64,000 bases of DNA, taken from an uncultured bacterium (GTDB taxonomy: Bacteria; Caldisericota; JANLFM01). The stretch lies in contig CAZTNW010000002.1 of the NCBI GenBank assembly GCA_964614945.1, positions 43,959-107,958 of the forward strand, written 5' to 3'. Positions 1 to 15,496 of the stretch are shown in pieces. The notes below the pieces were generated by a model that was given only the letters and a program-made list of their open reading frames with translations, searched no databases and had not been told where the DNA came from. The position numbers were made by a program, and so were the translations under genes. Within the stretch, counting starts at the first letter, position 1. Every line of letters starts with the position of its first letter.

Positions 1-1
1 C

Positions 2-889
2 GAGCTGGAGGTCTCCGACCAGTGGCAGACGAACGAGGCCCTAACCTCCCTCGAGCAGATTCCTGGGATCGAGATCGCCACCGTCTACGCCGGCTCAGTG
101 CTGAACATCACCATGAACACGAAGAAGCCCCCCACGGACGACCTCCACTTCCGTCGAGCTCTGGCCTATTGCCTCGATTATGAGACCGTCTGCAACAAGC
201 TCTTCCCCGGTTGCAAGCAGGCGAAGGGTCCTGTAGCCGCCGTGACACCGGGTCACAACCCCGACCTCTTCCAGTTCACCCAGGATTTCGCCAAGGCAGA
301 GGAGGAGATCAAACAATCCAAGTACTATGGTCAGCTCGATCAGTACCCCTTTGAGCTCCACTGGATCTCCGAGGTGCCCGATGAGGAAAAGATCGCCCTC
401 ATGCTCCAGGCTAATGCCGCCAAGGTCGGGATCAAGATCAACGTAACCAAGACGCCCTGGATCTCCAACATCGACAACTGTGCCCAGATGGAGACCACCC
501 CCAACGGGATCGTCGTCTTTGTAGCTCCGCATTACGCCGAAGCCGGATCGATGTTAGAATCACGCTATCACTCTCGTTCCGCCGGAACCTGGGAGCAGGG
601 GGAATGGCTGCAGGATTCCGAGATTGACGCTCTGATCGAAGATGCGATCGCCACAATCGACCAGAAAGAGCGCTTCCAGAAATACTATGATATCCAGGAG
701 AAGCTCGTGGAGCTGTGCCCCACCCTCTTCATCTTCGACCAGGCGCAAAAACAGGCCATCCAGAACGACTACGTCGTCTTCCCCTCCTGGGAGGAGATTA
801 AAGCCGGTCGGCCTTCTCATCCCGTCATGGGCTACGACTTCTACTTCCGTGAGTTCAAAGTATTCCCGGATAAGATCCCCGCGTCCTGA
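2..889 (+). CDS. ABC transporter substrate-binding protein, family 5 (Opp/Dpp), 5'-truncated by the window edge
   Basis: Frame is open from base 2 (ELEVSDQWQTNEAL...). Clear paralog of 1790..3526: NTKKPPTDDLHFRRAL vs NSAKPPLDDVHFRRAL, WISEVPDEEKIAL vs WVSEVPDEEKVAL. Confidence 0.9.
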   Translation, partial: ELEVSDQWQTNEALTSLEQIPGIEIATVYAGSVLNITMNTKKPPTDDLHFRRALAYCLDYETVCNKLFPGCKQAKGPVAAVTPGHNPDLFQFTQDFAKAEEEIKQSKYYGQLDQYPFELHWISEVPDEEKIALMLQANAAKVGIKINVTKTPWISNIDNCAQMETTPNGIVVFVAPHYAEAGSMLESRYHSRSAGTWEQGEWLQDSEIDALIEDAIATIDQKERFQKYYDIQEKLVELCPTLFIFDQAQKQAIQNDYVVFPSWEEIKAGRPSHPVMGYDFYFREFKVFPDKIPAS

Positions 890-913
890 CGAATAAGCAA
901 TTACAGAGAGTAC

Positions 914-947
914 TCGGTGGGGAAGGGCGATCGCCCTTCCCCACCGA
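914..947. repeat. Perfect 34-bp palindrome downstream of SBP1 (hairpin; mRNA stabiliser, terminator or operator)
   Basis: tcggtggggaagggcga|tcgcccttccccaccga is an exact inverted repeat with no spacer and no strong U-tract. Confidence 0.75.
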
Positions 948-969
948 TAAAATCAGGAAAAGGAGAGCC

Positions 970-1683
970 ATGCAAAAGAAAATCAAAGTGATCGTCCCTG
1001 TCTCAACCGAGATCTGGAATGAGCCGACTCTGAAAGAGATGCAGAAATACAAAGATTCCGAGACCTCGATCGACATCGTCAGCCTCAAGAAGGGGCCGGA
1101 GTCAATTGAAGATTCCTATGATGAAGCCTGGTCCGCATTTCCGACAATACAGGAAGTCCTGAAAGCAGAGAAAGAGGGCTACGACGGCCTGATTATATAT
1201 TGTTACGGAGACCCTGCCCTGCGCGCAGCGAAGGAAGCGGTAAAGATTCCCATCGTTGGATTGGGAGAGAGCAGCGCCACCTTCGCTTCCTTATTGGGGC
1301 ACAAGTTCGGCATCGTGACCGCCGGCCCCCCGGAGTCAGGGTCCTATCTCATGGATAACTTGAAGATATATGAGTTGGATCACAAATGCGTGGGTGTCGC
1401 GTCAGTGGGGATTCCTGTTCTCGATTTGAAGGAAGGGGACAAGGAAGAGGAAAGGTTGCTCATCAAAATCGGGGACGAGATGATCAAAAAGGGAGCAGAG
1501 GTACTCATCTTAGGATGTGGTAGTATGCTCGGGGTCGCGGAGACTGCCTCGCGCAAACTTGGCGTACCGATCATTATTCCTGCTGCCGCCGCGCTCAAGC
1601 TCTGCGAAGCCATGATCTCTATGGGAGTGGCCCAGAGCAAAAAAGCCTTTTATCCGCCCGCAGAAAAGAAGCGGACGATGTAA
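970..1683 (+). CDS. Asp/Glu/hydantoin (allantoin) racemase family protein
   Basis: GPESIED, IIYCYGDP and ILGCGSM (two catalytic Cys), GVPII; AGGAG RBS. Confidence 0.9.
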   Translation: MQKKIKVIVPVSTEIWNEPTLKEMQKYKDSETSIDIVSLKKGPESIEDSYDEAWSAFPTIQEVLKAEKEGYDGLIIYCYGDPALRAAKEAVKIPIVGLGESSATFASLLGHKFGIVTAGPPESGSYLMDNLKIYELDHKCVGVASVGIPVLDLKEGDKEEERLLIKIGDEMIKKGAEVLILGCGSMLGVAETASRKLGVPIIIPAAAALKLCEAMISMGVAQSKKAFYPPAEKKRTM

Positions 1684-1789
1684 ATTAAATTTAACAGGGA
1701 AAGGGGATGAAAAAGACAATCATCTTTAGCTTTGGAAGACTTTGGGGGACGAGGAATATTACAGTTTTTTGAGACAAAAGGAGGAGCAG

Positions 1790-3526
1790 ATGAGTAAAGG
1801 AACCCCTAAGGCTTTAAGGGTCATTAGAATCAAGCTGGCGGCAGTGCTGGCCCTGGCTTTAGTTTTCGCCCTGCTGGTGTCTTGTGCACCGTCTCAACCC
1901 AGCACACCTACGAGCAGCTCTCCTACTAGTTCTTCCTCTCCCACGCCTACTTCGACAACACCCCCCAAGGAGAAGATCGTACGGGTTGTGCAGTCCTGGC
2001 CCTGCTACATCGATCCGGCCGTGGGACAGGATAATGTCGCCGCCATCGCTCACACCAATCTCTATGACCAGCTGGTCAAGATAAACGAGAAAGGGGAGGT
2101 AGCGCCTAAGGTCGCCAGAAGCTGGGATTTCGACGCCGCTTCCAATACCTATACTTTCCATTTGGAAAAGGGGATCAAATTCCACAATGGCGACATCCTA
2201 ACTGCAAAAGACGCACTTTTCAGCATGAAGCGTCTGATGACTATCGGCGAGGGATGGGCTTTCCTTTTCAAGAGGGTGATCGGGGAATACAGTGCCCCTG
2301 ACGCGGAGACGTTCGTGGTCACCTTGAAGGAAAATTACGGCCCCTTCCTCTCCACCTTGATCCATTTTTCCATCCTGAACGAGAAACAGGTCATGGCCAA
2401 CAAGAAGGCTGACGGACCGTACGGAGAAATGGGAGACTACGGCAAGGACTGGTTGGTCACCCATGATGCCGGTTCCGGCCCCTACATGGTCAAGGCGATG
2501 AAAACCGAGGAGTACCTCTACGCCGTTCGTGTCCCTGACTATTGGGGCGGATGGGACGAGAATGCCCCGGATTCTTTCAAGCTGATCGGCACGACGGAGC
2601 CGGTTACCGTTCGCACACTGATGAACAGGAAAGAGATTGAGATCACGGATGAGTGGCAACCCACGGAGAATTACAAGGCCATGAAGGACATCCCTGGTGT
2701 AGATGTAGCCAATTTCCTCGCCGGGGGTGTGCTCTACCTCTCCCTCAACTCCGCCAAGCCGCCGCTTGACGACGTGCATTTCCGTCGGGCCTTGCTGCAC
2801 CTCTTTGATTACAAGACCTGCCACGAAAAGATTTATCCTGAGGCCAAGCGTACGAACAGTCCGATTGGCTCAGCCCTTCCTGGATGGGATTCGACAATGC
2901 CTCTTTTAGAAAGGGATCTGGAAAAAGCCAAGGCTGAGCTCGCTCAATCTCCCTACGCGGATAAGCTGGACCAGTATCCTGTCGAATTCGCCTGGGTTTC
3001 AGAGGTGCCTGATGAGGAAAAAGTCGCCCTTCTTATGCAGAGCAACGCGGCCGATATTGGGATCAAAATAGAGGTCACCAAGAACCCTTGGCTTACAATG
3101 GTTGACCGGGCCGCGAGCCCCGACTCCTGTCCCCACATCTTCACCGAGATTAAGACGAGCATTCCTTATCCGGAGGCCGGAGCCCTGCTCGAAGAGGGAT
3201 ATCATTCTGCTGGAAGAGGGACTTTCGCCAATGTTCACTGGTTCACAGACGAGATTCAAAGCGAACTCGACAGACTTCTGGCCGATGCCCTTGGCACAAT
3301 GAACAATGAAGAGCGGTACGCGAAATACAGGGAACTAAGCCAGAAGCTCATCGATCTCGCCCCCGACATCTGGGCGGTGGAGCTCCCGCAGAGACACGCC
3401 TATCATGCCGATTATCTAATCTGGCCTGATGCTGACGCAGCCAAGGCTGGCAAGGCGATCAACATCATGCCCGGGCACAGGATGTACTTCAAGAATATGA
3501 AGTTCATCCCGGAGAAAATGCCATAA
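1790..3526 (+). CDS. oppA: ABC transporter substrate-binding lipoprotein, family 5
   Basis: ATG 1790 follows a GGAGGAG RBS. Lipobox LLVSC, S/T/P linker, family-5 core (YTFHLEKGIKFHNGDILTAKD). Confidence 0.92.
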   Translation: MSKGTPKALRVIRIKLAAVLALALVFALLVSCAPSQPSTPTSSSPTSSSSPTPTSTTPPKEKIVRVVQSWPCYIDPAVGQDNVAAIAHTNLYDQLVKINEKGEVAPKVARSWDFDAASNTYTFHLEKGIKFHNGDILTAKDALFSMKRLMTIGEGWAFLFKRVIGEYSAPDAETFVVTLKENYGPFLSTLIHFSILNEKQVMANKKADGPYGEMGDYGKDWLVTHDAGSGPYMVKAMKTEEYLYAVRVPDYWGGWDENAPDSFKLIGTTEPVTVRTLMNRKEIEITDEWQPTENYKAMKDIPGVDVANFLAGGVLYLSLNSAKPPLDDVHFRRALLHLFDYKTCHEKIYPEAKRTNSPIGSALPGWDSTMPLLERDLEKAKAELAQSPYADKLDQYPVEFAWVSEVPDEEKVALLMQSNAADIGIKIEVTKNPWLTMVDRAASPDSCPHIFTEIKTSIPYPEAGALLEEGYHSAGRGTFANVHWFTDEIQSELDRLLADALGTMNNEERYAKYRELSQKLIDLAPDIWAVELPQRHAYHADYLIWPDADAAKAGKAINIMPGHRMYFKNMKFIPEKMP

Positions 3527-3544
3527 GCGTTTAAGTATTTGAGC

Positions 3545-3579: not shown

Positions 3580-3593
3580 AAAAGGAGAAGGTT

Positions 3594-4622
3594 ATGAAAC
3601 TTGGCCCATTTTTACTTCGGAGAATCCTCCTTTCTATATTCGTGCTATTCGGCATTTCGGTCCTGATCTTCGTGATCGCCAGGGTAGTACCCGGAGACCC
3701 CGCACGCATGGCATTGGGACCAAGGGCCCCCCAGGAGGTGGTGGACAGACTCAGGCAGGAAATGTATCTGGACAAATCCCTGCCCGAGCAATATTACTAC
3801 TGGATTAAAGGCGTCCTGACCGGAGACTTTGGCAGGTCACTCTTTACAAAGCGGGCGGTGATCGAGGATATCAAGGAGTACCTGCCCGCTACGATGGAGC
3901 TGGCCTTGCTTTCAGGAATACTGATGGTCATCTTTGCCATTATCCTGGGCTCGCTGGCGGCGCGTTACAGGGACACCTGGGTGGATACTCTAATTCGCAC
4001 CATGGCCTATTTTGGCGTGGCCTTACCGGCCTTCGTAGTCGCCGTGCTTTTTTTGCTTCTTTTCGGCTACGTGTGGCCCATCCTGCCGGCATTAGGCAGG
4101 ATCAGTGTGGGAGTCACGCCGCCGCCGACCATTACTGGGATGCTGACCTTGGACAGCCTGCTTACGGGAAATTTTGTCGCATTCTGGGATTCCTTCAAGC
4201 ACCTCCTCCTCCCTGGGCTTGCACTTGCCCTGGGGAGCATCTTTCAGGAGGCCCGGATAACCCGTTCCAGCATGGTTGATAATCTGCATAAGGATTTCCT
4301 TCTCGCCGAGAGAGGCTACGGCATACCTGAGCGCACGATCATGCTCAAATATTTGCTGAAGCCCTCACTGATCCCCACTGTCTCAGTCATGGGGTTAGAC
4401 TTCGCCTCCCTTCTGGGCAACGCCTTCCTCGTGGAATTGATCTTCAACTGGCCGGGGATTTCTCGTTACGGCATCAATGCCATGCTGCGCAAGGACCTTA
4501 ATGCAATCTCCGCGGTGATCGTGGTATTTGGCTTGGTCTTCGTCGTCGTGAACATCGTCGTGGATATCATCGTCGCCTACCTGGACCCCCGTATTCGCTT
4601 AGGCGGCGTAAAGGGGACATGA
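3594..4622 (+). CDS. oppB: Oligopeptide/dipeptide ABC permease B
   Basis: PGDPARM N-terminal motif, six TM segments, ARITRSSM/EAA-like loop, YLDPRI C-terminus. Confidence 0.93.
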   Translation: MKLGPFLLRRILLSIFVLFGISVLIFVIARVVPGDPARMALGPRAPQEVVDRLRQEMYLDKSLPEQYYYWIKGVLTGDFGRSLFTKRAVIEDIKEYLPATMELALLSGILMVIFAIILGSLAARYRDTWVDTLIRTMAYFGVALPAFVVAVLFLLLFGYVWPILPALGRISVGVTPPPTITGMLTLDSLLTGNFVAFWDSFKHLLLPGLALALGSIFQEARITRSSMVDNLHKDFLLAERGYGIPERTIMLKYLLKPSLIPTVSVMGLDFASLLGNAFLVELIFNWPGISRYGINAMLRKDLNAISAVIVVFGLVFVVVNIVVDIIVAYLDPRIRLGGVKGT

Positions 4623-5545
4623 AAATGGCTAATAATCCAAACAACGGTTCTGTAAGCCTGGAGGCCGCCCAAGCTCCATCGATAGCTGCTAGGATTAAAG
4701 AAGGCATGCGCAAGAACTGGTACAAGTTCTCACGCAATAAGCTTTCGGTGGTCGGTCTCGTCATTGTAGTTCTAGTGATCCTCCTGGCAATTTTCGCCCC
4801 CTGGGTCACTCCCTATCCGGAGCATGCCGGAGCTTTCGTGGATTACGACAACGCCGGCCTCGCTCCTTCCGGAACATACCTTCTCGGAAGTGATATTTTC
4901 GGCAGGGATATACTTACCCGCATCATCTACTCCTTCCGCGGAGCTCTGATCATGTCGATCGTCGTTCTCGGCCTCGCTGTCCCGCCCGGGGTGATCCTGG
5001 GGCTTCTGGCCGGCTACTTCAAGAATACCTGGATAGACACCCTGATCATGCGTATCACCGACATCTTCCTCGCACTCCCGCCCCTGATTCTCGCCCTGGC
5101 CATCGCTTCCGTGCTTGAGCCGAATCTGATGAACTCCATGATCGCCGTCACCTTAATGTGGTGGCCCTGGTACACCCGTTTAGTCTACGGGATGGCCTCT
5201 TCTTGGAGGAATGAATATTTTGTCATCGCCGCGGAGTTGACCGGAACGAGCAAGTTCCACATCCTCTTCCGCGAGATTCTGCCCAACTGCCTCTCCCCTG
5301 TCTTCACCAAGATGGCCCTCGATGTCGGCTGGGTAATTCTAATCGGCGCCTCCCTGAGTTTCGTGGGACTAGGAGAGCAACCGCCCACGCCTGCTTTAGG
5401 ACAAATGGTCTCTGACGGGGCCAAATATATGCCGGACCTCTGGTGGATGACTATCTTTCCCGCTCTAGCCATAGTCATTATCATCCTCGGTTTCAATCTG
5501 ATGGGCGACGGAATCCGAGACATGTTAGAGACAAGGATGGGCTGA
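4619..5545 (+). CDS. oppC: Oligopeptide/dipeptide ABC permease C
   Basis: LGSDIFGRDILTRIIY, EILPNC, LGFNLMGDGIRD. Confidence 0.93.
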   Translation: MKMANNPNNGSVSLEAAQAPSIAARIKEGMRKNWYKFSRNKLSVVGLVIVVLVILLAIFAPWVTPYPEHAGAFVDYDNAGLAPSGTYLLGSDIFGRDILTRIIYSFRGALIMSIVVLGLAVPPGVILGLLAGYFKNTWIDTLIMRITDIFLALPPLILALAIASVLEPNLMNSMIAVTLMWWPWYTRLVYGMASSWRNEYFVIAAELTGTSKFHILFREILPNCLSPVFTKMALDVGWVILIGASLSFVGLGEQPPTPALGQMVSDGAKYMPDLWWMTIFPALAIVIIILGFNLMGDGIRDMLETRMG

Positions 5546-5549
5546 CGAA

Positions 5550-6554
5550 ATGACTGAGAATTTGATCCTGAACATCCAAGACCTGCATGTATGGTACAAG
5601 GTATTCGGCGGTTATCTGAAGGTCCTCGACGGGGTGAATTTCACTGTCGGAAAGGGAGAGAAGGTCGGCCTGGTGGGCGAGACCGGTTGCGGGAAAACCA
5701 CCACGATGAAGGCCATTCTCCGAATTTTACCCGAGAAGGACTCGCACATTCCTCAGGGAGAAATCCTCTTTAAGGGCAAGGATACACTGAAGATGAGAGG
5801 ACACGAGCTGCAACGCGTTCGCTCGCAGGGTATCGCCATGATCTTCCAGGATCCGACGGCGGCTTTGAACCCTGTCTTCACCATCGGCACGCAGATGCAG
5901 GACGTGATCAAGTACTCGCTGGCCTCCCATAAAGGGGAGGAGGGCTCCGCAGATAAAAAAGAGAAGGAGTTGGTGCGTGATATCGCCATGCGGGCGCTTA
6001 AAGAGGTCTCCCTCCCAGATCAGGCCAGGATGCTGCATAATTATCCGATCCAGCTCTCGGGGGGGATGAGGCAGAGGGTTTGTATTTCCATGGCCATCAC
6101 CACCCAGCGCGATCTTCTGATTGCAGATGAGCCCGGCACTTCGCTGGATGTAACGATCCAGGACCAGATATTGCGTCTCCTGCGAGAACTAGTGGAGCAG
6201 AAAGGGACTTCCATCATCCTCATCACCCATTCCCTGGGAGTCGCCCGCGAGATGACGGACCGTATCTACGTCATGTATGCGGGCAATATGGTAGAAGTGG
6301 CAAAGGCCAAGGAACTTTTCGCCCACCCCAGACACCCTTACACTCTCGGCCTCCTGGCTTCCATCCCCAAGATTTCCGGCGGAGGTATCGCTGCAGGAAT
6401 AACCGGGCGCATCCCCAACTATCTGAATCCTCCCCCTGGTTGTCGTTTCCACCCGCGCTGCCTGAAGGCTATGCCGATTTGCTCCCAGGAGAAACCGACC
6501 TTCTACGAAGTAGGAGATGGCCATCAGGTGGCCTGTTTCCTCTACAAGAGGTGA
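5550..6554 (+). CDS. oppD: Oligopeptide ABC ATP-binding protein D
   Basis: Walker A GETGCGKT, LSGGMRQRV, ADEP, C-terminal PPPGCRFHPRC. Confidence 0.94.
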   Translation: MTENLILNIQDLHVWYKVFGGYLKVLDGVNFTVGKGEKVGLVGETGCGKTTTMKAILRILPEKDSHIPQGEILFKGKDTLKMRGHELQRVRSQGIAMIFQDPTAALNPVFTIGTQMQDVIKYSLASHKGEEGSADKKEKELVRDIAMRALKEVSLPDQARMLHNYPIQLSGGMRQRVCISMAITTQRDLLIADEPGTSLDVTIQDQILRLLRELVEQKGTSIILITHSLGVAREMTDRIYVMYAGNMVEVAKAKELFAHPRHPYTLGLLASIPKISGGGIAAGITGRIPNYLNPPPGCRFHPRCLKAMPICSQEKPTFYEVGDGHQVACFLYKR

Positions 6555-6559
6555 ATAAA

Positions 6560-7585
6560 GTGACACAAGAGATTCTGAAAATCAAGCAACTTAAGAAATA
6601 TTTCCGCATCGGAAAGAACAAACAAGGACCTATTTACGTTCGCGCCGTGGATGGAGTCAATTTCACCGTGAACGAAGGGGAGACCTTCGGACTGGTAGGC
6701 GAATCAGGCTCGGGCAAGAGCACCCTGGCTTACACCGTGATCGGCATGTACAAGCCGACAGCCGGCCAGATACTGTTCAAAGACAATAACATCGGCATAG
6801 AAGCCAGCAAGCGGTCCTTGGCTCTCAAAAAGGATATGCAGATCGTCTTCCAGGACCCTGGCTCCTCGCTCAATCCGCGGCGCAATATCCGCCAGATTCT
6901 CTCCGTACCTCTGAAATTGCACCGACAGATCCAGCGTGGCCGGATGGACGAGGTGATCATCGAGCTGTTGCAAAAGGTGGAGCTGCCGCCTGATTACATG
7001 TATAAATCCCCTCCTTTGATCGGCGGGGGGGAGAAACAAATGGTAGCCATCGCCAGAGCTCTGGCTCCCGATCCCTCCCTGATCGTCTTGGACGAGCCGA
7101 CCTCTGCTCTAGATGTCTCCGTCCAGGCGAAGATCATCACCAAGCTGATCGACCTGCAGAAGGAGATGAATCTCACTTACCTTTTCATCACTCACGACCT
7201 CAGCTTGATGAGGAATGTGGCTTCGAGAGTGGCCATTATGTACCTGGGGAGGATTTGCGAGCTGGCCAGCGCTGTGGAGTTTTTCCAGAAACCTCTTCAC
7301 CCCTACACAAGGATGCTTCTCTCGTCAGTGCCTGTTGTGTCGGAAGAGGAAGAATCATTGAGACCCAAAAAGATCATCTCCACCGGAGAGATTCCCAGCC
7401 CGGTCAACATCCCCCCGGGTTGCAGTTTCCACCTCCGCTGTCCGGAGAAGGTTGCGACCTGCTCAAAAGACGACCCCGAGATGCACGAGGTGAGCCCCGG
7501 GCATTTCGTACGCTGCCATCAGTTCCCCGCGAACCTTGAGGAGAGCACTTACAGCGATTCCGATCTTCTGAAAAAATCCCGGTAA
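6560..7585 (+). CDS. oppF: Oligopeptide ABC ATP-binding protein F
   Basis: Likely GTG start at 6560. GESGSGKST, DEPTSALD, PPGCSFHLRCP; the signature motif is slightly variant (LIGGGEKQ). Confidence 0.92.
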   Translation: MTQEILKIKQLKKYFRIGKNKQGPIYVRAVDGVNFTVNEGETFGLVGESGSGKSTLAYTVIGMYKPTAGQILFKDNNIGIEASKRSLALKKDMQIVFQDPGSSLNPRRNIRQILSVPLKLHRQIQRGRMDEVIIELLQKVELPPDYMYKSPPLIGGGEKQMVAIARALAPDPSLIVLDEPTSALDVSVQAKIITKLIDLQKEMNLTYLFITHDLSLMRNVASRVAIMYLGRICELASAVEFFQKPLHPYTRMLLSSVPVVSEEEESLRPKKIISTGEIPSPVNIPPGCSFHLRCPEKVATCSKDDPEMHEVSPGHFVRCHQFPANLEESTYSDSDLLKKSR

Positions 7586-7597: not shown

Positions 7598-8371
7598 ATG
7601 GGCAAGATATTGTGGGTCAACCCTTTCGGCAATCCGAACTTCGACCTCCCGATCAAGGATTATTTGGCTAAAGCAAAGTCTCAGGCAAGCGAAATCAGGG
7701 TTATCTCTTTCCCTCGGGGGCCCAACCATCTGGAGTTCCATTATTATGAGTCCCTTCTCCTCTCAGATATCCTTCATGCCATAAAAAACGGGGAGAAGGA
7801 GGGCTTCGATGCGGCCATCATCGGCTGCTTCTATGACCCCGGCCTGAGGGAAGCGCGAGAGATCACGGAGCGGATGGTAGTGACCGCACCGGCCGAGTCC
7901 TCTATGCACATTGCCAGCACCCTGGGGAACAGCTTCTCCATCATCGTAGGCAGGAATAAGTGGATTCCTGCCATGCATGAAAACGTGGTTAAGTATGGCT
8001 TCAAGGATCGGCTGGCCTCTTTTAAATCGGTGGGCTTGGGGGTTCTGGAGTTTATGAAGGATGTGGCCGAGACGAACCGACGCCTGATCGAAGCCGCCAG
8101 GGAGGCCGTGGAGAAGGATCGGGCGGAGGTGATAATTTTAGGCTGTACAATTCAGTTTGGATTTTACCGGGAGCTGGAGCAGATGCTTGGCGTCCCGGTA
8201 ATCGATGCCGTCCTCGCTCCTTTAAAGTACGTTGAATTCCTCGTGGAGATCCGCGACCGTTTCGGCTGGGGCCACAGCAAGAAGTATGGTTACGAATCTC
8301 CTCCTCTCCAGGAGATTGAGGAATGGAAAATTGCCGAGCAGTATAACCTGGAAAATCTCTGGAAAAAATAA
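7598..8371 (+). CDS. Asp/Glu/hydantoin racemase family protein (copy A)
   Basis: IIGCFYDP and ILGCT catalytic Cys pair; AAGGAGG RBS. Confidence 0.88.
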   Translation: MGKILWVNPFGNPNFDLPIKDYLAKAKSQASEIRVISFPRGPNHLEFHYYESLLLSDILHAIKNGEKEGFDAAIIGCFYDPGLREAREITERMVVTAPAESSMHIASTLGNSFSIIVGRNKWIPAMHENVVKYGFKDRLASFKSVGLGVLEFMKDVAETNRRLIEAAREAVEKDRAEVIILGCTIQFGFYRELEQMLGVPVIDAVLAPLKYVEFLVEIRDRFGWGHSKKYGYESPPLQEIEEWKIAEQYNLENLWKK

Positions 8372-8376: not shown

Positions 8377-8386
8377 GGTGAAGAAA

Positions 8387-9163
8387 ATGGCAAGGCGGAT
8401 TGCATACATCACCCCGGCAGGTGCAGATTTTTTCGACGCTCTCTTCCAGGAATACTTAGATCCGGCGAAGGACCCCCGAACCGATTTGCAGACACTCTCC
8501 TTAAAAAGAGGGCCCCACCATCTGGAGTTCCATTATTATGAGTCCCTTGTGCTTCAAGACACCCTTCATCTGATCAGGCAGAAGGAGAAGGAGGGCTTCG
8601 ATGCGGCCATCATCGGCTGCTTCTATGACCCCGGCCTGAGGGAAGCGCGAGAGATCACGGAGCGGATGGTAGTGACCGCACCGGCCGAGTCCTCTATGCA
8701 CATTGCCAGCACCCTGGGGAACAGCTTCTCCATCATCGTAGGCAGGAATAAGTGGATTCCTGCCATGCATGAAAACGTGGTTAAGTATGGCTTCAAGGAT
8801 CGGCTGGCCTCTTTTAAATCGGTGGGCTTGGGGGTTCTGGAGTTTATGAAGGATGTGGCCGAGACGAACCGACGCCTGATCGAAGCCGCCAGGGAGGCCG
8901 TGGAGAAGGATCGGGCGGAGGTGATAATTTTAGGCTGTACAATTCAGTTTGGATTTTACCGGGAGCTGGAGCAGATGCTTGGCGTCCCGGTAATCGATGC
9001 CGTCCTCGCTCCTTTAAAGTACGTTGAATTCCTCGTGGAGATCCGCGACCGTTTCGGCTGGGGCCACAGCAAGAAGTATGGTTACGAATCTCCTCCTCTC
9101 CAGGAGATTGAGGAATGGAAAATTGCCGAGCAGTATAACCTGGAAAATCTCTGGAAAAAATAA
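8387..9163 (+). CDS. Asp/Glu/hydantoin racemase family protein (copy B)
   Basis: Same C-terminal ~190 aa as copy A with a distinct N-terminus. ATG 8387 follows AAGGAGGGTG. Confidence 0.88.
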   Translation: MARRIAYITPAGADFFDALFQEYLDPAKDPRTDLQTLSLKRGPHHLEFHYYESLVLQDTLHLIRQKEKEGFDAAIIGCFYDPGLREAREITERMVVTAPAESSMHIASTLGNSFSIIVGRNKWIPAMHENVVKYGFKDRLASFKSVGLGVLEFMKDVAETNRRLIEAAREAVEKDRAEVIILGCTIQFGFYRELEQMLGVPVIDAVLAPLKYVEFLVEIRDRFGWGHSKKYGYESPPLQEIEEWKIAEQYNLENLWKK

Positions 9164-9168: not shown

Positions 9169-9173
9169 AATTA

Positions 9174-10793
9174 ATGAAGAACAATAGGCCAAATCAGATA
9201 CGCGTAGGCTTTGACGTAGGTGGAACCTTCACGGATGGTGTGCTGGTCGCCGGCACAGAGGTTCTTGCCAAGACCAAGAGCCTCACCACGGGAGATGTAA
9301 CATCCGGCATCGTCGCGGCCTTAGACCAGCTCTTAGAGGTATCAAAAGTGGACAAGGGGTCAATTGAGATGGTCTCCCTGGGAACCACTCATACCACTAA
9401 TGCCATTATCGAGCGCCGCAATCTGAACAAGGTAGGCGTCTTCCGGCTCGGGGCGCCAGCCACTACGGCGATCCCTCCTCTCACCGGCTGGCCTCAGGAG
9501 CTGGTCGATGCCATCGGTGGGTATCATAACGTCTTTATCATCCGCGGCGGGTCGGAGTATGACGGGAGAGACATCGTTGCCTTGGATGAGCGGTCGATAG
9601 TCGAAGCCTGTCACAAAATAAGGGGGAAAGTGGATGCAGTTGCCATCACTGGCGTCTTCTCCCCTATCATAAACGATCACGAGGATCGGGCGGCAAAAAT
9701 CGTCAAAGAAGAACTGGGCCCGAATGTCCATATTACCCTTTCCAATCGCATCGCCTCAATTTCCATCCTGGAAAGGGAGAACTCCACGATCCTGAACGCA
9801 TCGGTCATCAATGTCATGCGCCAGGCGGTGAGCTCCCTGAAAAAAGCAGTCACCGACAGGGGGATCAAAGCTCGTCTCTTCATCGTGCAGAACGACGGCA
9901 GCGTGATGTCCGCTGATTACGCAGTCGACTACCCTATCTTCACCATGGCCTCAGGCCCTGCTGCCAGCGTGCGCGGCGCTGTATATCTCTCCGGGATCGA
10001 GAACGGGGTAGTGGTGGATATCGGGGGTACTTCCACCGATGTGGGTTACATCGTTAAGGGCTTCCCGCGAGAATCCTCGATCACGGTGAATATCGGAGGA
10101 GTAAAAACCAATATCCGCTGTCCGGACCTCCTTTCTATCGCCTTAGGCGGAGGAACAATAGTAAAGCAAAAAGAGGGCAAGGTTACCGCCCTGGGGCCAG
10201 AGAGTGTTGGATACAACCTTGTGCGCCTAAGCAGAGCTTTTGGCGGACCTCTGCTGACGGTCCATGACATCGCTGTCGCCACCGGGAGGCTCAAGGAAAA
10301 GTTGGAGGTTTTCGACACCAACTACATGGTGGACAGCAAAAAGATTCAGGAGCTGAAGCCCGAGACCGTGCAATCAGCCGATGCCCTGATTAAAGAGACT
10401 CTGGAGGCAGCAATCGATAAGATGAAGACTGCGGCGGATGCCGTTCCAGCTATTTTCGTCGGGGGCGGAGCTATGGTTGTTCCCAACAAAGATCTGCACG
10501 GGATCAGCAAAGTCTTCCTACCCAAACATTTCGAGGTGGGCGGGGCGATCGGTACTACCATCGCGGAGATCGGCGCTTACGCTGAAGGGGTTTTCGACCT
10601 AGAAAAGGAGGATCGGGACGAATCTATTGCTCGTACAATCGAGCAGGCCAAGGACAACGCCAGTCTCTCCGGAGCAATCCGTTCGACCATAGAGGTCATC
10701 GACATCGAGGAAATCCCCTTCACCTACATGCCGGGCAAACGAGAGAAGGTCCGCGCCAGGGTCAAGGGAAAGATCTTTGAGGGAGCGAAATAA
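9174..10793 (+). CDS. Hydantoinase A / 5-oxoprolinase family protein (ATP-binding subunit)
   Basis: GFDVGGTFTD, GTTHTTNAI, SGPAASVRG, VDIGGTSTDVG; ATG 9174 follows AAGGAG. Confidence 0.9.
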   Translation: MKNNRPNQIRVGFDVGGTFTDGVLVAGTEVLAKTKSLTTGDVTSGIVAALDQLLEVSKVDKGSIEMVSLGTTHTTNAIIERRNLNKVGVFRLGAPATTAIPPLTGWPQELVDAIGGYHNVFIIRGGSEYDGRDIVALDERSIVEACHKIRGKVDAVAITGVFSPIINDHEDRAAKIVKEELGPNVHITLSNRIASISILERENSTILNASVINVMRQAVSSLKKAVTDRGIKARLFIVQNDGSVMSADYAVDYPIFTMASGPAASVRGAVYLSGIENGVVVDIGGTSTDVGYIVKGFPRESSITVNIGGVKTNIRCPDLLSIALGGGTIVKQKEGKVTALGPESVGYNLVRLSRAFGGPLLTVHDIAVATGRLKEKLEVFDTNYMVDSKKIQELKPETVQSADALIKETLEAAIDKMKTAADAVPAIFVGGGAMVVPNKDLHGISKVFLPKHFEVGGAIGTTIAEIGAYAEGVFDLEKEDRDESIARTIEQAKDNASLSGAIRSTIEVIDIEEIPFTYMPGKREKVRARVKGKIFEGAK

Positions 10794-11965
10794 TGTCAGT
10801 CTGGGACGTCATCAATGAATGGAAATTAGAGAAAACGGACTTTCAGGTCATCGATCATCAGGCCATCAAAGAGATCACGCTCGGCGCCTCCATTCTAGCC
10901 ACAGGGGGAGGAGGAGATCCGGAGATTGGCCTCCTCTGGACTTACAAGGTCCTGGATGAGCGAAAACCAATCGTGATGGTGGATCCAATGAAAATCCCGG
11001 ATGACGTGCTCGTATCGAGCATGGCTTGCCTGGGAGCAGCTTTAGTGCTCACGGAGAAACCTCCCAACGAGAATGTCCTGAATAAAGCAATCGCCAAGTT
11101 GGAGACATATTTGGGCGGTAAACTCCAAGCCACGATCCCCATCGAGTGCGGAGGGGTAAATTCACCCGTCGCCTACGCCGCTGCCGGCGAGCTGGGGATC
11201 CCCGTGATCGACGTGGACGGAATGAACCGAGCCTTTCCCGAACTGCAGATGACTTCCTGGGTCACACATGGAGTCCATGCCTCTCCCACAGTCTCCGCCG
11301 ACGACCGTGGGAATATCACCGTGATCGATACTGGAGACGATGACCTTCTATCCGAGACCATCTGCCGCAGGGTAGCCATGGCCTACGGAGGTATTTCCTG
11401 GATTGCCACCTATCCCATGCGGGGCAAAGAGGTGAAGGAGACCTCCATCCTTTACTCACAGAGTATCGCCTGGGCTGTGGGCAAGGCCGTCTGGGAAGCT
11501 CGTACGAAGCATCTGGATCCCGTGGAACAGGTAATGAAAAGCTTGAAGGAGAAAAGGAAGGTCGAGGGATTCAGCGTCTTCAAGGGCAAAATTGTGGACA
11601 TTCACCGCGAGTTTGGCGGAGAGACCACAAAAGGATTCACCCTGGGCAAGGTAATCATGGAAGGGATCGATGAGCACAGAGGGAGTACCGCCACCCTTGA
11701 TTTCCAGAACGAGTGGCTCAACTTGCTCGTGGATGGCCGTGTTCGCTGCATGCCCCCCGACCTGATCGCCATCCTGGACTCGGAAACGGGGGAACCGATC
11801 CGCACGGACATCATGAAGTACGGCTATCGAGGCACCGTCATTCTCATACCCGCTCACGAAAGGATGAGAACGGAGAAGGGTATTCAGATCTTCGGGCCAC
11901 GTCATTTCGGCTATGACTTAGATTATCAGCCTGTTGAAAAGCTCTGCGCGGATCTGAAAAGATGA
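10793..11965 (+). CDS. DUF917 family protein (S-methyl-thiohydantoin desulfurase-like fold), copy 1
   Basis: GASILATGGGGDP, ECGGVNS, DVDGMNRAFPELQM, FQNEWL, PDLIAILD. Confidence 0.85.
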   Translation: MSVWDVINEWKLEKTDFQVIDHQAIKEITLGASILATGGGGDPEIGLLWTYKVLDERKPIVMVDPMKIPDDVLVSSMACLGAALVLTEKPPNENVLNKAIAKLETYLGGKLQATIPIECGGVNSPVAYAAAGELGIPVIDVDGMNRAFPELQMTSWVTHGVHASPTVSADDRGNITVIDTGDDDLLSETICRRVAMAYGGISWIATYPMRGKEVKETSILYSQSIAWAVGKAVWEARTKHLDPVEQVMKSLKEKRKVEGFSVFKGKIVDIHREFGGETTKGFTLGKVIMEGIDEHRGSTATLDFQNEWLNLLVDGRVRCMPPDLIAILDSETGEPIRTDIMKYGYRGTVILIPAHERMRTEKGIQIFGPRHFGYDLDYQPVEKLCADLKR

Positions 11966-12252
11966 GGAGGGATATGATGGAAGAGATAATCGATAAGTTG
12001 ATACAGGAGAGGGATTGCGGCAAAGTAATCTCCATCGTCCTCGAGAATCCTTATATCGAGAAGGGGGCTTTAGCGGAGCAAGCCTCCATGAAGATAGAAG
12101 CCCTGGAAGGCGTTCTCGAAAAACTCATAGAGGCGATGATCCTGCTGGAGCTGGCCAGCCAGGCTGATTCAAGCATGGAATCGCGCGTGCCCAAGAAGAT
12201 CTACCTCGTGAATCCGGAGATCGAAGAAAAAGCAAGGCAATCGCTTTCATGA
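11962..12252 (+). CDS. Small hypothetical protein, possible winged-helix
   Basis: Overlaps both neighbours by ATGA, consistent with translational coupling. The helix-helix-helix plus beta-hairpin pattern is inferred by eye. Confidence 0.6.
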   Translation: MRRDMMEEIIDKLIQERDCGKVISIVLENPYIEKGALAEQASMKIEALEGVLEKLIEAMILLELASQADSSMESRVPKKIYLVNPEIEEKARQSLS

Positions 12253-13358
12253 CGGAAGAAAAGTCTTTTCCGGATCTCTCCGGCAGGCTGAACCTCTTCT
12301 ATAGTGAGATGGAAAAGCATAACTGCGATGCCGCGTTAATTACGGGCAGGGGGAATTTGCGCTATTTTACTGATTTTCGTCTGAACAGGGTGACCTCTGC
12401 GCTTTTAGCCGTACCTCGAACAGGCCAGTGCGCTTTTTTTGTCGCCCGACTTGACCTGGAGCGGGCCAGGAAGGAGTGCCCGTCCCTGCGCATCGTCCCT
12501 TTTCCCGAGGACACGCTCTCCTATCTCGACGGACTGAGAGGGGTTTTCGACCCCGCTCGAATCAAAACGCTGGCGGTGGACTCTTCCCTGCTCAATAACC
12601 AGGCCCAATTCCTGAAGGAGCTTTTACCCCACACCGGGCTGGTATCGATCGATACTGCCCTGCTCCACCTGAGGGCTGTCAAGGAGAAGGTGGAGGTAGA
12701 GAGGCTGAGGAAGGCCGCAGAAATTGCCGACAAAGCCATGCAGTATGTTCTGGAGCAGGCTGCCGAGGGCAAAAGGGAGCTCGAGCTTGTCGGTCTGGCC
12801 AAAATGATCATCGCCCGACAGGGTGGCGAGGACGAATCCTTCGAGTCCTTCATGATGTCGGGTGAGCGTTCCTGGCTCCCTCAGAGAGTGGCTACGGAAA
12901 AGGAGCTGCGCAAAGGAGAACTCATCATCTTTGACATGGGAGCCATTTTTCGGGGCTATTGCTCCGATATCACGCGCACATTTGCCCTGGGAGATCTCTC
13001 CCCGGAGCAGAAGAAAATTTTCCAGGTTGCTCTGAGGGCGCATGATCGAGCTATTAAGGCCATCCGTCCCGGTGTGGAAGCTCAATACATCGATCGGGTA
13101 GCCAGGTCCTGCATCGAGGAAAGCGGGTATGGTTCCTATTTTCCTCACCTGACAGGGCATGGTCTCGGGGTTGAGATCCACGAGCAACCGATACTGGACA
13201 GAGGTAGTTCCACCAGGCTTGAGGAGGACATGGTGCTGACGGTCGAGCCGGGTATCTATCTTCCCGGGGCAGGAGCAGCCCGGATAGAGGACATGCTGCT
13301 CGTTACTGAAGGGGGAGCAGAATTCCTCACTCACACCCCCCGTGATCTGATAAAGTAA
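12249..13358 (+). CDS. M24B Xaa-Pro peptidase (aminopeptidase P / prolidase family)
   Basis: Metal ligands in DMG, SDITRT, HGLG, HEQP, EPGIY, RIED. Confidence 0.92.
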   Translation: MTEEKSFPDLSGRLNLFYSEMEKHNCDAALITGRGNLRYFTDFRLNRVTSALLAVPRTGQCAFFVARLDLERARKECPSLRIVPFPEDTLSYLDGLRGVFDPARIKTLAVDSSLLNNQAQFLKELLPHTGLVSIDTALLHLRAVKEKVEVERLRKAAEIADKAMQYVLEQAAEGKRELELVGLAKMIIARQGGEDESFESFMMSGERSWLPQRVATEKELRKGELIIFDMGAIFRGYCSDITRTFALGDLSPEQKKIFQVALRAHDRAIKAIRPGVEAQYIDRVARSCIEESGYGSYFPHLTGHGLGVEIHEQPILDRGSSTRLEEDMVLTVEPGIYLPGAGAARIEDMLLVTEGGAEFLTHTPRDLIK

Positions 13359-13371
13359 ATAGGAGAAGCGG

Positions 13372-14517
13372 ATGAGCGTCTATCAAATCTTGCAAAAATG
13401 GGGGGTCAAGGATTTCGAACGCCTTGACATCCAAGCGATTTCCGAAATTACGTTAGGAGCTTCTATTCTGGCTACAGGAGGAGGAGGAGATCCTGAAATC
13501 GGCTTCCTCTGGGCCTGGAATGTCTTGAATGAGGGCAAAGAGATTGTCATGATCAGGGCCGTTGATATGCCTGACGATAGCTTAGCCACCATCGCCGGAT
13601 GTTTGGGAGCGGCTCTGGTTCTCACGGAAAAGCCCCCCAACGGCCGAGAATTGCTCTGGTGCTACGAGAAATTAGCCTCTTACATGGGTCGTCCCGTGGA
13701 GGCCGTCATCCCTCCTGAGGCGGGAGGGGTGAATACCCCAGTGCCCATGGCCGTAGCCGGAGCTGTGGGAATCCCTGTAATTGATGCCGACGGAATGGGA
13801 CGGGCCTTCCCGGAATTGCAGATGACCTCTTTCTACATCAACGGGGTTTCTCCCTCCCCTACCGCTGCCGCCAACGAGAAGGGACATGTCACGATTGTGG
13901 ATGCGGAAGAGGCTTTAATGGCGGAGGCCCTCGTGCGCAATGCCGCCATGGCTTACGGAGGAATCACCTGGATTGCTGGTTACCCGATGACCGGCAAACA
14001 ATTGAAGCAAGCCGCTATACCTGGTTCAATCTCTGTGGCCTGGAAATTAGGTCGGGCTGTCCTGGAGGCCAGGCGGAAACACGCCAACCCCATCCAAAAG
14101 GTGGTGGAGATTACGGGTGGTCAGGCCGCCTTCGAGGGGAAAATTGTGGACATCAATCGTCAGTTTGGCGCTGAAAAAACCAGGGGTTTCTCCCTCGGAC
14201 GCATTAAAATGGAGGGGGTCGACTCATATAGCGGGCAGAAGGCGGAGATAGATTTTCAGAATGAGTGGCTGAACTTCATCCTCAACGGAGAGGTCCTCTG
14301 CCTCCCTCCTGATCTTATCTGCATCCTGGACCCGGTTACCGGGGAACCAATCCGCACGGATATCGTCAAGTATGGATATCGGGGAACAGTGGTTCTTATC
14401 CCGGCTCATCCCCGCATGCGGACCCCCAAGGGAATTCAGACCTTCGGGCCTCGTTACTTCGGATATGATTACGACTACATCCCGGTAGAGAAGCTCTGGC
14501 TGAAAAGAAATGGCTGA
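13372..14517 (+). CDS. DUF917 family protein, copy 2
   Basis: GASILATGGGGDP, EAGGVNT, DADGMGRAFPELQM; paralog of 10793..11965. Confidence 0.85.
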   Translation: MSVYQILQKWGVKDFERLDIQAISEITLGASILATGGGGDPEIGFLWAWNVLNEGKEIVMIRAVDMPDDSLATIAGCLGAALVLTEKPPNGRELLWCYEKLASYMGRPVEAVIPPEAGGVNTPVPMAVAGAVGIPVIDADGMGRAFPELQMTSFYINGVSPSPTAAANEKGHVTIVDAEEALMAEALVRNAAMAYGGITWIAGYPMTGKQLKQAAIPGSISVAWKLGRAVLEARRKHANPIQKVVEITGGQAAFEGKIVDINRQFGAEKTRGFSLGRIKMEGVDSYSGQKAEIDFQNEWLNFILNGEVLCLPPDLICILDPVTGEPIRTDIVKYGYRGTVVLIPAHPRMRTPKGIQTFGPRYFGYDYDYIPVEKLWLKRNG

Positions 14518-15496
14518 TCGAGAATTATTGATTCCCGTGATTGACTCGCATACCGCTGGGGAGCCCACCCGGGTAATCCTCCGCTGTCCCTGGCGAATTC
14601 CCGGCAAGACCATGGAGGAAAAAAGAACCTGGTTCGAACAACACTGCGACTCTTTTCGTCGCCTGGTGCTCTCTGAGCCGCGTGGACACCGCGACATGTT
14701 CGGTGCATTACTCTTAGAGCCGATCCACCCCGAAGCAGACTTCGGGGTGTTCTTCCTGGAAAATGAGTCCACCTTGCGCATGTGCGTACACGGCTCCATG
14801 GGTGTCGCCAGCACGCTCTTCGCCATGGGCTTCCCTGGCCAGGAGATGGCGCTTGATTCGCCATCCGGGCTCATTCATGCAAGGCTCGAGGGAAAACAGG
14901 GTGGGTTCTCCATCGCACTGCGGAACGTCCCCTCCTTTTTCGTCCAGGATCTGGAATTGGATTGGAGGAGCCACCGCCTACACGTGGATATCTCCTGGGG
15001 AGGTAACCTATTCGCTCTTGTCCGCGCTGCTGACCTTTCCATCTCGCTCGAGGAGAAAAATATTCCTCGTCTGATCGAGCTAGGTGCAGCCCTGCGAGAG
15101 GAGGTCAACAAGCGGATGCATTTCACCCACCCCCTTCTCAAAAGTGAAGTCCGCGTGGATCTGGTGGAAATCTACGACGAGGATTGCCGGCCGCCAAAAA
15201 ATATCGTCGTCTTCGGCCGGGGGCAGGTGGATCGTTCTCCCTGCGGGACAGGAACGAGCGCTAAGATCGCCACCCTCTTCGCTAAAGGAAAACTGAGTCA
15301 GGGCGAGGAATACCGCTACAGAAGTATTCTGAACACGGAATTCAGGGCCAGGATTGTCGATAGGGAAAAAGTCGGTCCCTACGAAGCGGTGGTTCCAGAA
15401 ATTCAGGGAGTGGTTCACCTCTCCTCCCATCAGTTCCTCACGCTCGAAGAGGGAGATCCTTTCCCGTCGGGCTTCCAGCTCGGCGGAGATCAATAG
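14510..15496 (+). CDS. Proline racemase family protein, Cys/Cys type (proline racemase or hydroxyproline 2-epimerase)
   Basis: DSHTAGEPTR, EPRGHRDMFGA, MCVHG, DRSPCGTGTSA. Confidence 0.88.
   Translation: MADRELLIPVIDSHTAGEPTRVILRCPWRIPGKTMEEKRTWFEQHCDSFRRLVLSEPRGHRDMFGALLLEPIHPEADFGVFFLENESTLRMCVHGSMGVASTLFAMGFPGQEMALDSPSGLIHARLEGKQGGFSIALRNVPSFFVQDLELDWRSHRLHVDISWGGNLFALVRAADLSISLEEKNIPRLIELGAALREEVNKRMHFTHPLLKSEVRVDLVEIYDEDCRPPKNIVVFGRGQVDRSPCGTGTSAKIATLFAKGKLSQGEEYRYRSILNTEFRARIVDREKVGPYEAVVPEIQGVVHLSSHQFLTLEEGDPFPSGFQLGGDQ

Follow-up and report, generated by a model that had tools for sequence, protein, structure and literature searches.

The hydrolases of the HyuA/HyuB type (5-oxoprolinase, N-methylhydantoinase and the caprolactamase CapAB), which have the acetone and acetophenone carboxylases among their relatives, are among the known systems closest to the operon described here. 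Another group comprises the thiohydantoin and S-methyl-thiohydantoin desulfurases, which are the only named members of the DUF917 family in NCBIfam; these desulfurases are not known to require ATP. The operon lies at positions 1-15496 of a 64,000-nucleotide stretch of DNA from an uncultured Caldisericota bacterium (GenBank assembly GCA_964614945.1, contig CAZTNW010000002.1, positions 43,959 to 107,958), here called the window, and combines a short HyuA with two DUF917 proteins, an oligopeptide-type importer, racemases and peptide-degrading functions.

A further related system is the cyclodipeptide oxidase (CDO), made of the subunits CDOA (PF00881) and CDOB (PF19585), whose known substrates are cyclic dipeptides. 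In a survey of CDO clusters, 88% were found without a cyclodipeptide synthase, and in these PF01177 racemases, DUF917, peptide ABC transporters and peptidases were over-represented; the survey left this content unexplained, proposed no function or pathway, omitted the HyuA partner and guessed that the DUF917 proteins are hydantoinases (bioRxiv 10.1101/2023.09.25.559410). Strains with diketopiperazine hydrolysis were described in 2013 without the genes (PMC3852281), and the authors of the caprolactamase study speculated that some annotated oxoprolinases could be cyclic dipeptide hydrolases (PMC6061476). The literature outside subscription journals yielded no work on the function of this operon or of any HyuA-DUF917 pair, and the June 2026 release of NCBIfam has no specific model for the operon proteins.

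Comparison with about 55 related loci indicates that this is very probably a conserved catabolic operon that yields proline, and that its short HyuA and DUF917 proteins likely form an ATP-dependent ring-opening hydrolase. As substrates we tentatively favour proline-containing 2,5-diketopiperazines, or small cyclic amides closely resembling them from which an Xaa-Pro unit is obtained.

Organization and conservation of the operon

The genes of the operon are the following:

2..889, +: SBP0, the C-terminal 295 amino acids of a family-5 solute-binding protein (SBP); Pfam SBP_bac_5, E 1e-19
970..1683, +: racemase 1, a two-cysteine epimerase resembling hydantoin/allantoin racemases; PF01177, E 9e-44
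1742..3526, +: second SBP, a family-5 solute-binding lipoprotein of an Opp/Dpp-type importer; PF00496, E 1e-60
3594..4622, +: OppB permease; from the BPD_transp_1, OppC_N, ABC_tran and oligo_HPY matches of OppBCDF
4619..5545, +: OppC permease; BPD_transp_1/OppC_N matches of the same set
5550..6554, +: OppD ATPase; ABC_tran/oligo_HPY matches of the same set
6551..7585, +: OppF ATPase; ABC_tran/oligo_HPY matches of the same set
7598..8371, +: racemase 2, a two-cysteine epimerase resembling hydantoin racemases; PF01177, E 1e-32
8378..9163, +: racemase 3, tandem paralogue of racemase 2; PF01177
9174..10793, +: short HyuA, an ASKHA-type ATPase of the hydantoinase-A/oxoprolinase family, 539 amino acids; Hydant_A_N and Hydantoinase_A
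10793..11965, +: DUF917a, with S-Me-THD-like N- and C-terminal domains, predicted hydrolytic partner of HyuA; PF06032 and PF20906
11962..12252, +: small acidic winged-helix protein of 96 amino acids, or of 91 from a homologue-like start (11977..12252); predicted fold
12249..13358, +: M24B Xaa-Pro dipeptidase of the prolidase type; Pfam Creatinase_N and Peptidase_M24
13372..14517, +: DUF917b, paralogue of DUF917a; PF06032 and PF20906
14510..15496, +: Pro_racemase, of the Cys/Cys proline racemase family, last gene of the operon; PF05544, E 1e-88

An earlier annotation made from the letters alone, here the sequence-only reading, had listed an Opp importer, HyuA, two DUF917 proteins, three racemases, an Xaa-Pro peptidase and a Pro/Hyp racemase, all on the + strand, and all were recovered at these positions. 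The translational coupling that it had proposed is seen as start/stop overlaps of 1-8 nucleotides at six junctions (OppB/OppC, OppD/OppF, HyuA/DUF917a, DUF917a/small open reading frame, small open reading frame/M24 and DUF917b/Pro_racemase). To this inventory are added a conserved open reading frame (ORF) of 91-96 amino acids between DUF917a and M24, and the reduced length of HyuA, described below.

The genes form an uninterrupted and tightly packed run. The remaining gaps between OppB and Pro_racemase are of 4-13 nucleotides, and those around racemase 1 and the second SBP of 58-80 nucleotides; the HyuA start codon (ATG at 9174) is preceded by an AAGGAG ribosome-binding site. The reading frame of SBP0, a protein with 40% identity to the second SBP, is open from base 2 and its gene crosses the left edge of the window, and therefore the true 5' end of the operon is outside the view. 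An Rfam scan of the first 21 kb gave no match, and promoter and terminator scans gave nothing beyond shuffled expectation.

The comparison set of about 55 loci was composed of annotated neighbourhoods of Biomaibacter, Cytobacillus and Bipolaricaulota plus 50 metagenome loci, and the window proteins were compared to these loci by tblastn. HyuA orthologues of 57-92% identity occur in metagenomes as well as in genomes labelled Bipolaricaulota, Aerophobetes, Bacillota, Biomaibacter acetigenes, Cytobacillus, Sporosarcina and Salinicoccus. The cassette itself is carried by Bipolaricaulota, Aerophobetes, Tepidanaerobacteraceae, Biomaibacter and Cytobacillus, in the near-invariant order SBP-OppBCDF-racemase(s)-HyuA-DUF917a-winged helix-M24-DUF917b-Pro_racemase, with one or two racemases at the indicated position. 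Since the same gene order recurs in about 55 loci, the arrangement is far beyond chance. Failure of the gene set to co-occur elsewhere had been named as grounds for abandoning the sequence-only reading; what is found is a near-invariant order across phyla.

Presence was counted only in loci long enough to show a given position; the counted loci span 70-92% HyuA identity and several phyla, and include near-duplicates, so that the counts are not independent. DUF917a directly followed HyuA in 50/50 loci, and the small winged-helix ORF was present in 49/49, M24 in 40/40, DUF917b in 33/34, Pro_racemase in 26/30 and the Opp genes in 24/28. The highest conservation is that of DUF917a, HyuA and DUF917b (63-95% identity), with DUF917a as the most conserved of all (72-95%), and the lowest that of the SBP, M24, the small ORF and Pro_racemase (40-86%). 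OppBCDF orthologues in the same position of the relatives have 57-82% identity.

The short HyuA and its DUF917 partners

The window HyuA contains Hydant_A_N and Hydantoinase_A domains (Pfam E 1e-35 and 5e-38), and its phosphate-binding motifs DVGGTFTD and DIGGTSTD, together with a GGG motif, are invariant among the orthologues. Its best match in the Protein Data Bank (PDB) is 7HK5, an N-methylhydantoinase. The protein lacks the Hydant_A_C domain (PF19278), which is present in the long HyuAs of two relatives (loci L084 and L085), and is about 150 amino acids shorter than long HyuA. The absence of a B subunit, already pointed out in the sequence-only reading, was confirmed for the whole 64 kb by tblastn with a HyuB query from the Cytobacillus locus L084 (best E 5.8).

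The position next to HyuA is occupied by DUF917a in all 50 loci in which it could be observed, and the two genes overlap by 1 nucleotide in the window. Natural fusions of the two proteins were also found. Among the best 150 HyuA matches in a search of 1.84 billion representative proteins (50%-identity representatives), about 50 were of 880-1100 amino acids, and the ten long matches that were scanned are all single chains with Hydant_A_N, Hydantoinase_A, S-Me-THD_N and S-Me-THD_C. These HyuA-DUF917 fusions are eukaryotic, with representatives in Naegleria gruberi, Anaeramoeba ignava, Acanthaster planci and Hyaloraphidium curvatum. A control set was formed by 79 of the 80 loci from a contig scan keyed on the generic motif DVGGTFTD, whose HyuA homologues share about 26-33% identity with that of the window; a long HyuA with an adjacent HyuB was present in approximately 65 of the 79, and DUF917 in none. 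Nine distant HyuA-like genes (26-31% identity) had neither HyuB nor DUF917 nearby (L025, L031, L035, L043, L044, L046, L055, L074 and L077, around position 10001); the ORF of L043 has 741 amino acids.

The sequence-only reading had proposed that DUF917 replaces HyuB, and this proposal gains from the invariable adjacency, the natural fusions and the mutually exclusive pairing. That the short HyuA works with DUF917 as its partner is well supported at the level of genes and domains, with a physical complex as its presumed form. The assignment of the pair as a ring-opening hydrolase is likely, its ATP-dependent chemistry being predicted.

Short HyuAs with 40-43% identity to the window protein also adjoin DUF917 in other gene settings. 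One independent cluster (L138, 6850-17602; HyuA 43% identical) has the order DUF917-HyuA-SBP-Opp-SDR-luciferase-like-M24 with a sigma-54 activator in front, and thus again includes an Opp-type importer and an M24 peptidase. Another setting (L141, 5649-9551) consists of an NCS1 permease, of the nucleobase/hydantoin type, followed by DUF917 and HyuA; the same NCS1 permease-DUF917-HyuA arrangement corresponds to the co-regulated genes CDR20291_1615-1617 of C. difficile (PMC12915319).

DUF917a and DUF917b both contain PF06032 (S-Me-THD_N) and PF20906 (S-Me-THD_C), with Pfam E values from 1e-46 to 1e-64. They are 58% identical to each other, and the place that each occupies among the operon genes is constant. 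The only significant fold match in the PDB for the AlphaFold2 model of DUF917a (pLDDT 84) was 2O3I, a structural-genomics DUF917 entry (Foldseek, TM score 0.71-0.76). The possibility that DUF917 is a divergent HyuB was rejected: no HyuB chain was retrieved by Foldseek, and an hhalign comparison to a profile of 40 HyuB sequences gave a probability of 0.09%. Since neither fold nor profile similarity to HyuB was detected, DUF917 is better regarded as an analogous, non-homologous partner.

Alignment of a-type, b-type, single-partner and fused eukaryotic forms revealed 52 near-invariant residues, all of which are kept in both window proteins, and only 10 positions with a fixed difference between DUF917a and DUF917b. 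A degenerate, non-catalytic paralogue was therefore rejected. Since the 52 residues are retained, both proteins are probably active, and the duplication appears to be old and maintained. It is probable either that the two paralogues join HyuA in a mixed complex, in line with the heteromer suggested in the sequence-only reading, or that they act on different isomers. Their scores against the NCBIfam equivalogs for thiohydantoin and S-methyl-thiohydantoin desulfurase (NF058529 and NF058532) were 61-103 bits, far below the cut-offs of 440-450, indicating that they are not desulfurase orthologues. By analogy, the chemistry could still be comparable: in the desulfurases, water displaces a leaving group at the activated C2 of a five-membered ring, a step that would parallel attack on a phospho-imidate.

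The small winged-helix protein had no match in Pfam, including its helix-turn-helix models, or in NCBIfam, and 29 homologues of 88-92 amino acids were found. Its AlphaFold2 model (pLDDT 87) is an ArsR/MarR-like winged helix, with Foldseek TM scores of 0.7-0.77 to CzrA, CadC, SmtB and NadR. In the alignment of the homologues the wing is invariant (LELASQADSSxESRVPKKIYLVNPE), whereas the helix in the place of a recognition helix varies and is acidic, and the median pI of the proteins is 4.7; such a pattern is unusual for a repressor. For this reason we lean towards a role as an accessory or protein-binding subunit, particular to the two-DUF917 system, over that of a classical repressor. The ORF is absent from the two other HyuA-DUF917 contexts examined (L138 and L141), and several of the relatives encode a separate regulator of the helix-turn-helix-cupin or PucR type.

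Candidate pathway and competing explanations

The three racemases keep both catalytic cysteines, in the motifs IYCYGDP and LGCGSM of racemase 1 and GCFYDPGL and LGCTIQ of racemase 2, and none matched an NCBIfam equivalog. The best PDB matches of racemase 1 are the hydantoin/allantoin racemases 3QVJ and 5LFD; those of racemase 2 are 3QVJ (E 1e-23) and the OpaE epimerase 9QBX (E 9e-16). The last 546 nucleotides of racemases 2 and 3 (7826-8371 and 8618-9163) are 100% identical, and their first ~240 nucleotides are 45-80% identical. The relatives have in this position either one racemase or two clearly different tandem copies, and the Logan contigs of that sample are interrupted at either side of the repeat; the identity is due either to a very recent gene conversion or to an assembly artefact.

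The M24 protein aligns along nearly its full length to the P. furiosus prolidase 1PV9 (E 9e-69), and its five metal ligands, which align with D209, D220, H284, E313 and E327 of 1PV9, are conserved. A creatinase- or ectoine-hydrolase-like non-peptidase was rejected on account of the full dimetal ligand set and this match. Judged by its sequence, the enzyme is of the genuine Xaa-Pro peptidase type; since it scored 253 bits against the 630-bit cut-off of the NCBIfam PepQ equivalog, it should be regarded as a family member rather than a proven PepQ orthologue.

The Pro_racemase of the operon has the catalytic pair Cys/Cys (MCVH and DRSPCGTG), and its nearest structures are the true proline racemases 7PB3 (E 5e-76), 6J7C and 1W61, which rank ahead of other family members, including 3-hydroxyproline dehydratase. 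A function as hydroxyproline dehydratase was rejected because the pair is Cys/Cys and not Cys/Thr. The NCBIfam equivalog score (310 bits, cut-off 556) leaves both proline and 4-hydroxyproline as possible substrates. A second gene of this family, 36% identical to the operon copy, is located at 46257-47285 of the window and encodes MCGH and DRSPTGTG, that is, the Cys/Thr pair of the trans-3-hydroxy-L-proline dehydratase type. It is followed at 47530-53627 by a Liv-type amino-acid ABC importer (Peripla_BP_6, two BPD_transp_2 permeases and ATPases), and the region 46257-53627 may be a separate hydroxyproline utilisation locus.

The importer is complete for the Opp/Dpp type, with a family-5 SBP, two BPD_transp_1 permeases and two ATPases with an oligo_HPY tail. 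The second SBP has its likely start at ATG 1790 and a lipobox (LVSC) followed by a Ser/Thr/Pro-rich linker, and its nearest solved relatives are the di/tripeptide binders HbpA, MppA and DppA.

Further genes flank the cassette in the relatives. Directly upstream of the SBP, a gene of the PF00881 nitroreductase family followed by a PF19585 gene, the families of CDOA and CDOB, was found in 17-19 of the 23-24 loci in which this region is visible. The relatives evidently belong to the class of CDO clusters without a synthase. Downstream of Pro_racemase, about 15 loci encode two FAD proteins whose best solved relatives are chain B (E 5e-57) and chain A of 1Y56, the L-proline dehydrogenase complex of Pyrococcus horikoshii.

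In 14 of the 18 relatives with the region visible, a canonical pair of long HyuA and HyuB is located directly upstream of the CDO genes:

about 1-2800: long HyuA-HyuB upstream of CDO in L097, L102, L106, L113, L116, L117, L120, L121, L123 and L131
partial: L101, L105, L115 and L135

By gene content, these super-clusters would hold two different ATP-dependent ring-opening systems. Since this position falls to the left of the window edge, a HyuB near the operon is possible in the source genome as well; in the relatives HyuB is accompanied by its own full-length HyuA. Accessory genes are variable. The Cytobacillus locus L084 contains three canonical HyuA-HyuB pairs, an M19 dipeptidase and an additional M24 around the cassette, and NicX-like (PF26233) proteins and an M20 peptidase, absent from the window, were found in other relatives (L085, 1-1946; L122, 2868-3689; L128, 1323-3255; L088, 39-860).

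The degradation of proline diketopiperazines would bring these functions together as follows. The family-5 SBPs and OppBCDF would import the compound, and the two-cysteine racemases would epimerise the alpha-carbons of the ring, converting mixed D/L stereoisomers into the form accepted by the hydrolase. The short HyuA would then phosphorylate the lactim oxygen of the only secondary amide of the ring (Pro-CO-NH-Xaa), and a DUF917 hydrolase would add water to the activated imidate and open the ring, the role that HyuB has in oxoprolinase, N-methylhydantoinase and caprolactamase. Since an ATP-dependent lactamase would activate only a secondary amide, through its lactim form, and Pro-CO-NH-Xaa is the sole one, the product would be linear Xaa-Pro, whose tertiary amide bond would be cleaved by the M24 prolidase. 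The Cys/Cys proline racemase would interconvert D- and L-proline, and in the relatives the adjacent L-proline dehydrogenase would continue the pathway. The expense of ATP would be justified because hydrolysis of such rings is presumably not strongly favourable, as with 5-oxoproline.

The link to proline is drawn from the complete prolidase ligands, the Cys/Cys proline racemase, the 1Y56-subunit homologues of the relatives and the recurrence of an Opp-type importer and an M24 in the independent cluster L138, and the link to cyclic dipeptides from the CDOA/CDOB pair directly upstream of the SBP in most observable relatives. The import-racemise-ring-open scheme of the sequence-only reading is thus backed by comparative evidence. 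Its list of candidate substrates (hydantoin- or thiohydantoin-capped peptides, Pro/Hyp diketopiperazines and D-amino-acid peptides) is narrowed: the CDO and L-proline dehydrogenase pairs of the relatives and the complete prolidase favour proline diketopiperazines.

Several observations weigh against proline diketopiperazines as the substrate. Its identity is deduced from the gene neighbours alone, and the window shows neither the CDO pair nor the proline dehydrogenase: the left edge cuts the operon where the relatives carry CDO, and an unrelated exporter lies downstream. The lack of the upstream genes may be simply an effect of the window ending inside the SBP0 gene. The canonical HyuA-HyuB of many relatives could be the ring-opening enzyme for the principal substrate, the scheme gives no reason why two DUF917 paralogues and a winged-helix protein would be required, and the mechanistic analogy between HyuB and DUF917 is not backed by homology. 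In addition, since one subfamily adjoins an NCS1 nucleobase/hydantoin permease, the HyuA-DUF917 module is not peptide-specific in itself.

A hydantoin-type ring is possible, because the closest solved matches to the racemases are hydantoin/allantoin racemases (3QVJ and 5LFD) and the only DUF917 enzymes with a name act on thiohydantoins. In such a hydantoin or ureide catabolism, which we regard as unlikely, a 5-substituted or proline-fused (thio)hydantoin would be racemised and opened by HyuA-DUF917 to an N-carbamoyl amino acid or N-carbamoyl-proline, and M24 would remove the carbamoyl group, comparable to the cleavage of an N-amidino group by creatinase. It would be in keeping with the inclusion of N-methylhydantoinase in the HyuA family (7HK5 being the best PDB match), with the NCS1 permease of the subfamily just mentioned and with the M20 peptidase of the Bipolaricaulota loci, a possible carbamoylase. 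However, the conserved core has no carbamoylase, the importer is of the peptide-type Opp/Dpp kind, M24 retains the complete dimetal site of a prolidase (E 9e-69 to the P. furiosus enzyme) and does not resemble creatinase, and the CDO pair would be left unexplained; moreover, natural sources of such hydantoins are scarce. Somewhat less probable as a substrate is some other proline-yielding compound, either a small cyclic amide or a modified derivative of an amino acid (a lactam, cyclic imide or opine-like conjugate), for which the general enzyme roles would be the same and the ring would not be a diketopiperazine. HyuA-type enzymes take varied lactams in published work (caprolactam, valerolactams), HyuA-DUF917 pairs occur with different transporters and tailoring enzymes (SDR, luciferase-like monooxygenases), and the downstream FAD enzymes of the relatives also resemble sarcosine and opine oxidases, all of which would fit; yet no specific compound accounts for the importer, prolidase, proline racemase, CDO and alpha-carbon racemases as economically as cyclo(Xaa-Pro).

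The same importer, whose SBP is nearest to di/tripeptide binders, could also serve linear proline peptides that are partly racemised or N-terminally blocked. The stereocentres of peptides or amino acids would then be the targets of the racemases, and HyuA-DUF917 would serve as a second kind of ATP-dependent 5-oxoprolinase, removing pyroglutamate derived from N-terminal Gln or Glu. The prolidase and proline racemase, the membership of 5-oxoprolinase in the HyuA family and the carriers, which by their source names are sediment and subsurface anaerobes, are consistent with this, as such organisms live on detrital peptides. We consider it improbable nonetheless, because racemases of the hydantoin type with two cysteines are not known to act on linear peptides, the cluster has no pyroglutamyl peptidase, many relatives already carry in the same cluster a canonical HyuA-HyuB, the usual oxoprolinase type, and neither the CDO pair nor the two DUF917 paralogues would be explained. 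Finally, all characterised CDOs are tailoring enzymes in biosynthetic clusters, which would suit a tailoring cluster for a modified cyclic dipeptide natural product; this is very improbable, given that no cyclodipeptide synthase or non-ribosomal peptide synthetase was found in the loci examined, that the transporter is an importer with a binding protein and not an exporter, and that the prolidase, proline racemase and proline dehydrogenase indicate degradation.

The catabolism of proline diketopiperazines remains the reading that we favour, and a broader proposal can be built on it, more speculative than the reading itself: the short HyuA and DUF917 may represent a new class of ATP-dependent ring-opening hydrolase whose hydrolytic protein is unrelated to HyuB. 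In this operon it would be a diketopiperazine hydrolase, formed by a complex of the ATPase, the two DUF917 proteins and the winged-helix subunit, in the first genetically defined pathway of diketopiperazine catabolism, and many eukaryotes would possess it as a fused enzyme.

Genes of other kinds occur elsewhere in the window. Convergent with the operon, on the minus strand at 15490-19727, are an ABC-2 exporter (two permeases and an ATPase with a DrrA C-terminal domain) and then a radical SAM/Fer4_12 protein of ~470-490 amino acids; they may form a peptide-maturation and export unit, with no apparent relation to the operon. A rubrerythrin gene is also found among the unrelated genes of the opposite strand beyond the operon. 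On the + strand, the region 41052-46204 contains in a row an HlyD-type adaptor, a MacB-type ABC ATPase and permease, a LemA protein and an M48 peptidase.

Comparison with known systems

Diketopiperazines are abundant as microbial signals, antibiotics and products of the heating and ageing of proteins, and in sediments and foods, and the genes for their degradation are essentially unknown. The operon is a clonable candidate for cyclic-dipeptide breakdown, with cultivable carriers in Biomaibacter acetigenes and Cytobacillus oceanisediminis. If the favoured reading is true, it would provide a function for DUF917 and for the short HyuA, which is routinely mis-annotated as hydantoinase or oxoprolinase, including the fused eukaryotic form; it would also imply two separate origins of the ATP-dependent lactamase strategy, with hydrolytic partners unrelated to each other, and would account for the many CDO clusters without a synthase. 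Of practical interest are the mild enzymatic opening of stable cyclic amides and the stereoconvergent production of dipeptides.

The operon shares with the HyuA/HyuB enzymes the ASKHA ATPase, with Hydant_A_N and Hydantoinase_A domains and intact nucleotide motifs, and by analogy likely the same logic, the activation of a stable cyclic amide by ATP. It differs from them in the shortened HyuA without Hydant_A_C, in a partner that is not homologous to HyuB, and in the association of one ATPase with two partner paralogues and a small winged-helix protein. The eukaryotic HyuA-DUF917 fusion parallels the eukaryotic 5-oxoprolinase, which is a fusion of HyuA and HyuB. What appears to be new here is that the hydrolytic partner in a predicted ATP-dependent hydrolase of cyclic amides is not homologous to HyuB, and that the enzyme is set in a pathway context not described before.

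The relation to the thiohydantoin and S-methyl-thiohydantoin desulfurases is one of two-domain fold family, and the motifs GGGG, E-x-GG, D-x-DG-x-RA-P and QNE are kept in DUF917a and DUF917b; the window proteins are, in contrast, obligatorily linked to an ATPase. With the genes of the hydantoinase process (the racemase HyuE, a hydantoinase and a carbamoylase) the operon has in common the combination of racemase, ring-opener and downstream hydrolase, that is, the logic of a dynamic kinetic resolution. Its core, however, has no hydantoinase of the cyclic-amidohydrolase type and no carbamoylase, and the third position is taken by a prolidase.

Archaeal and bacterial clusters for proline or hydroxyproline utilisation, in which a proline racemase or Hyp epimerase accompanies a prolidase and a dye-linked L-proline dehydrogenase such as P. 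horikoshii PDH1 (1Y56), share with the operon the prolidase and the Cys/Cys proline racemase, and with its relatives the homologues of the proline dehydrogenase subunits, whereas the HyuA-DUF917 module, the hydantoin-type racemases and CDO are absent from them. The relatives of the operon match the synthase-less CDO clusters (bioRxiv 10.1101/2023.09.25.559410) in composition, with the same content of PF01177 racemases, DUF917, peptide ABC transporters and peptidases.

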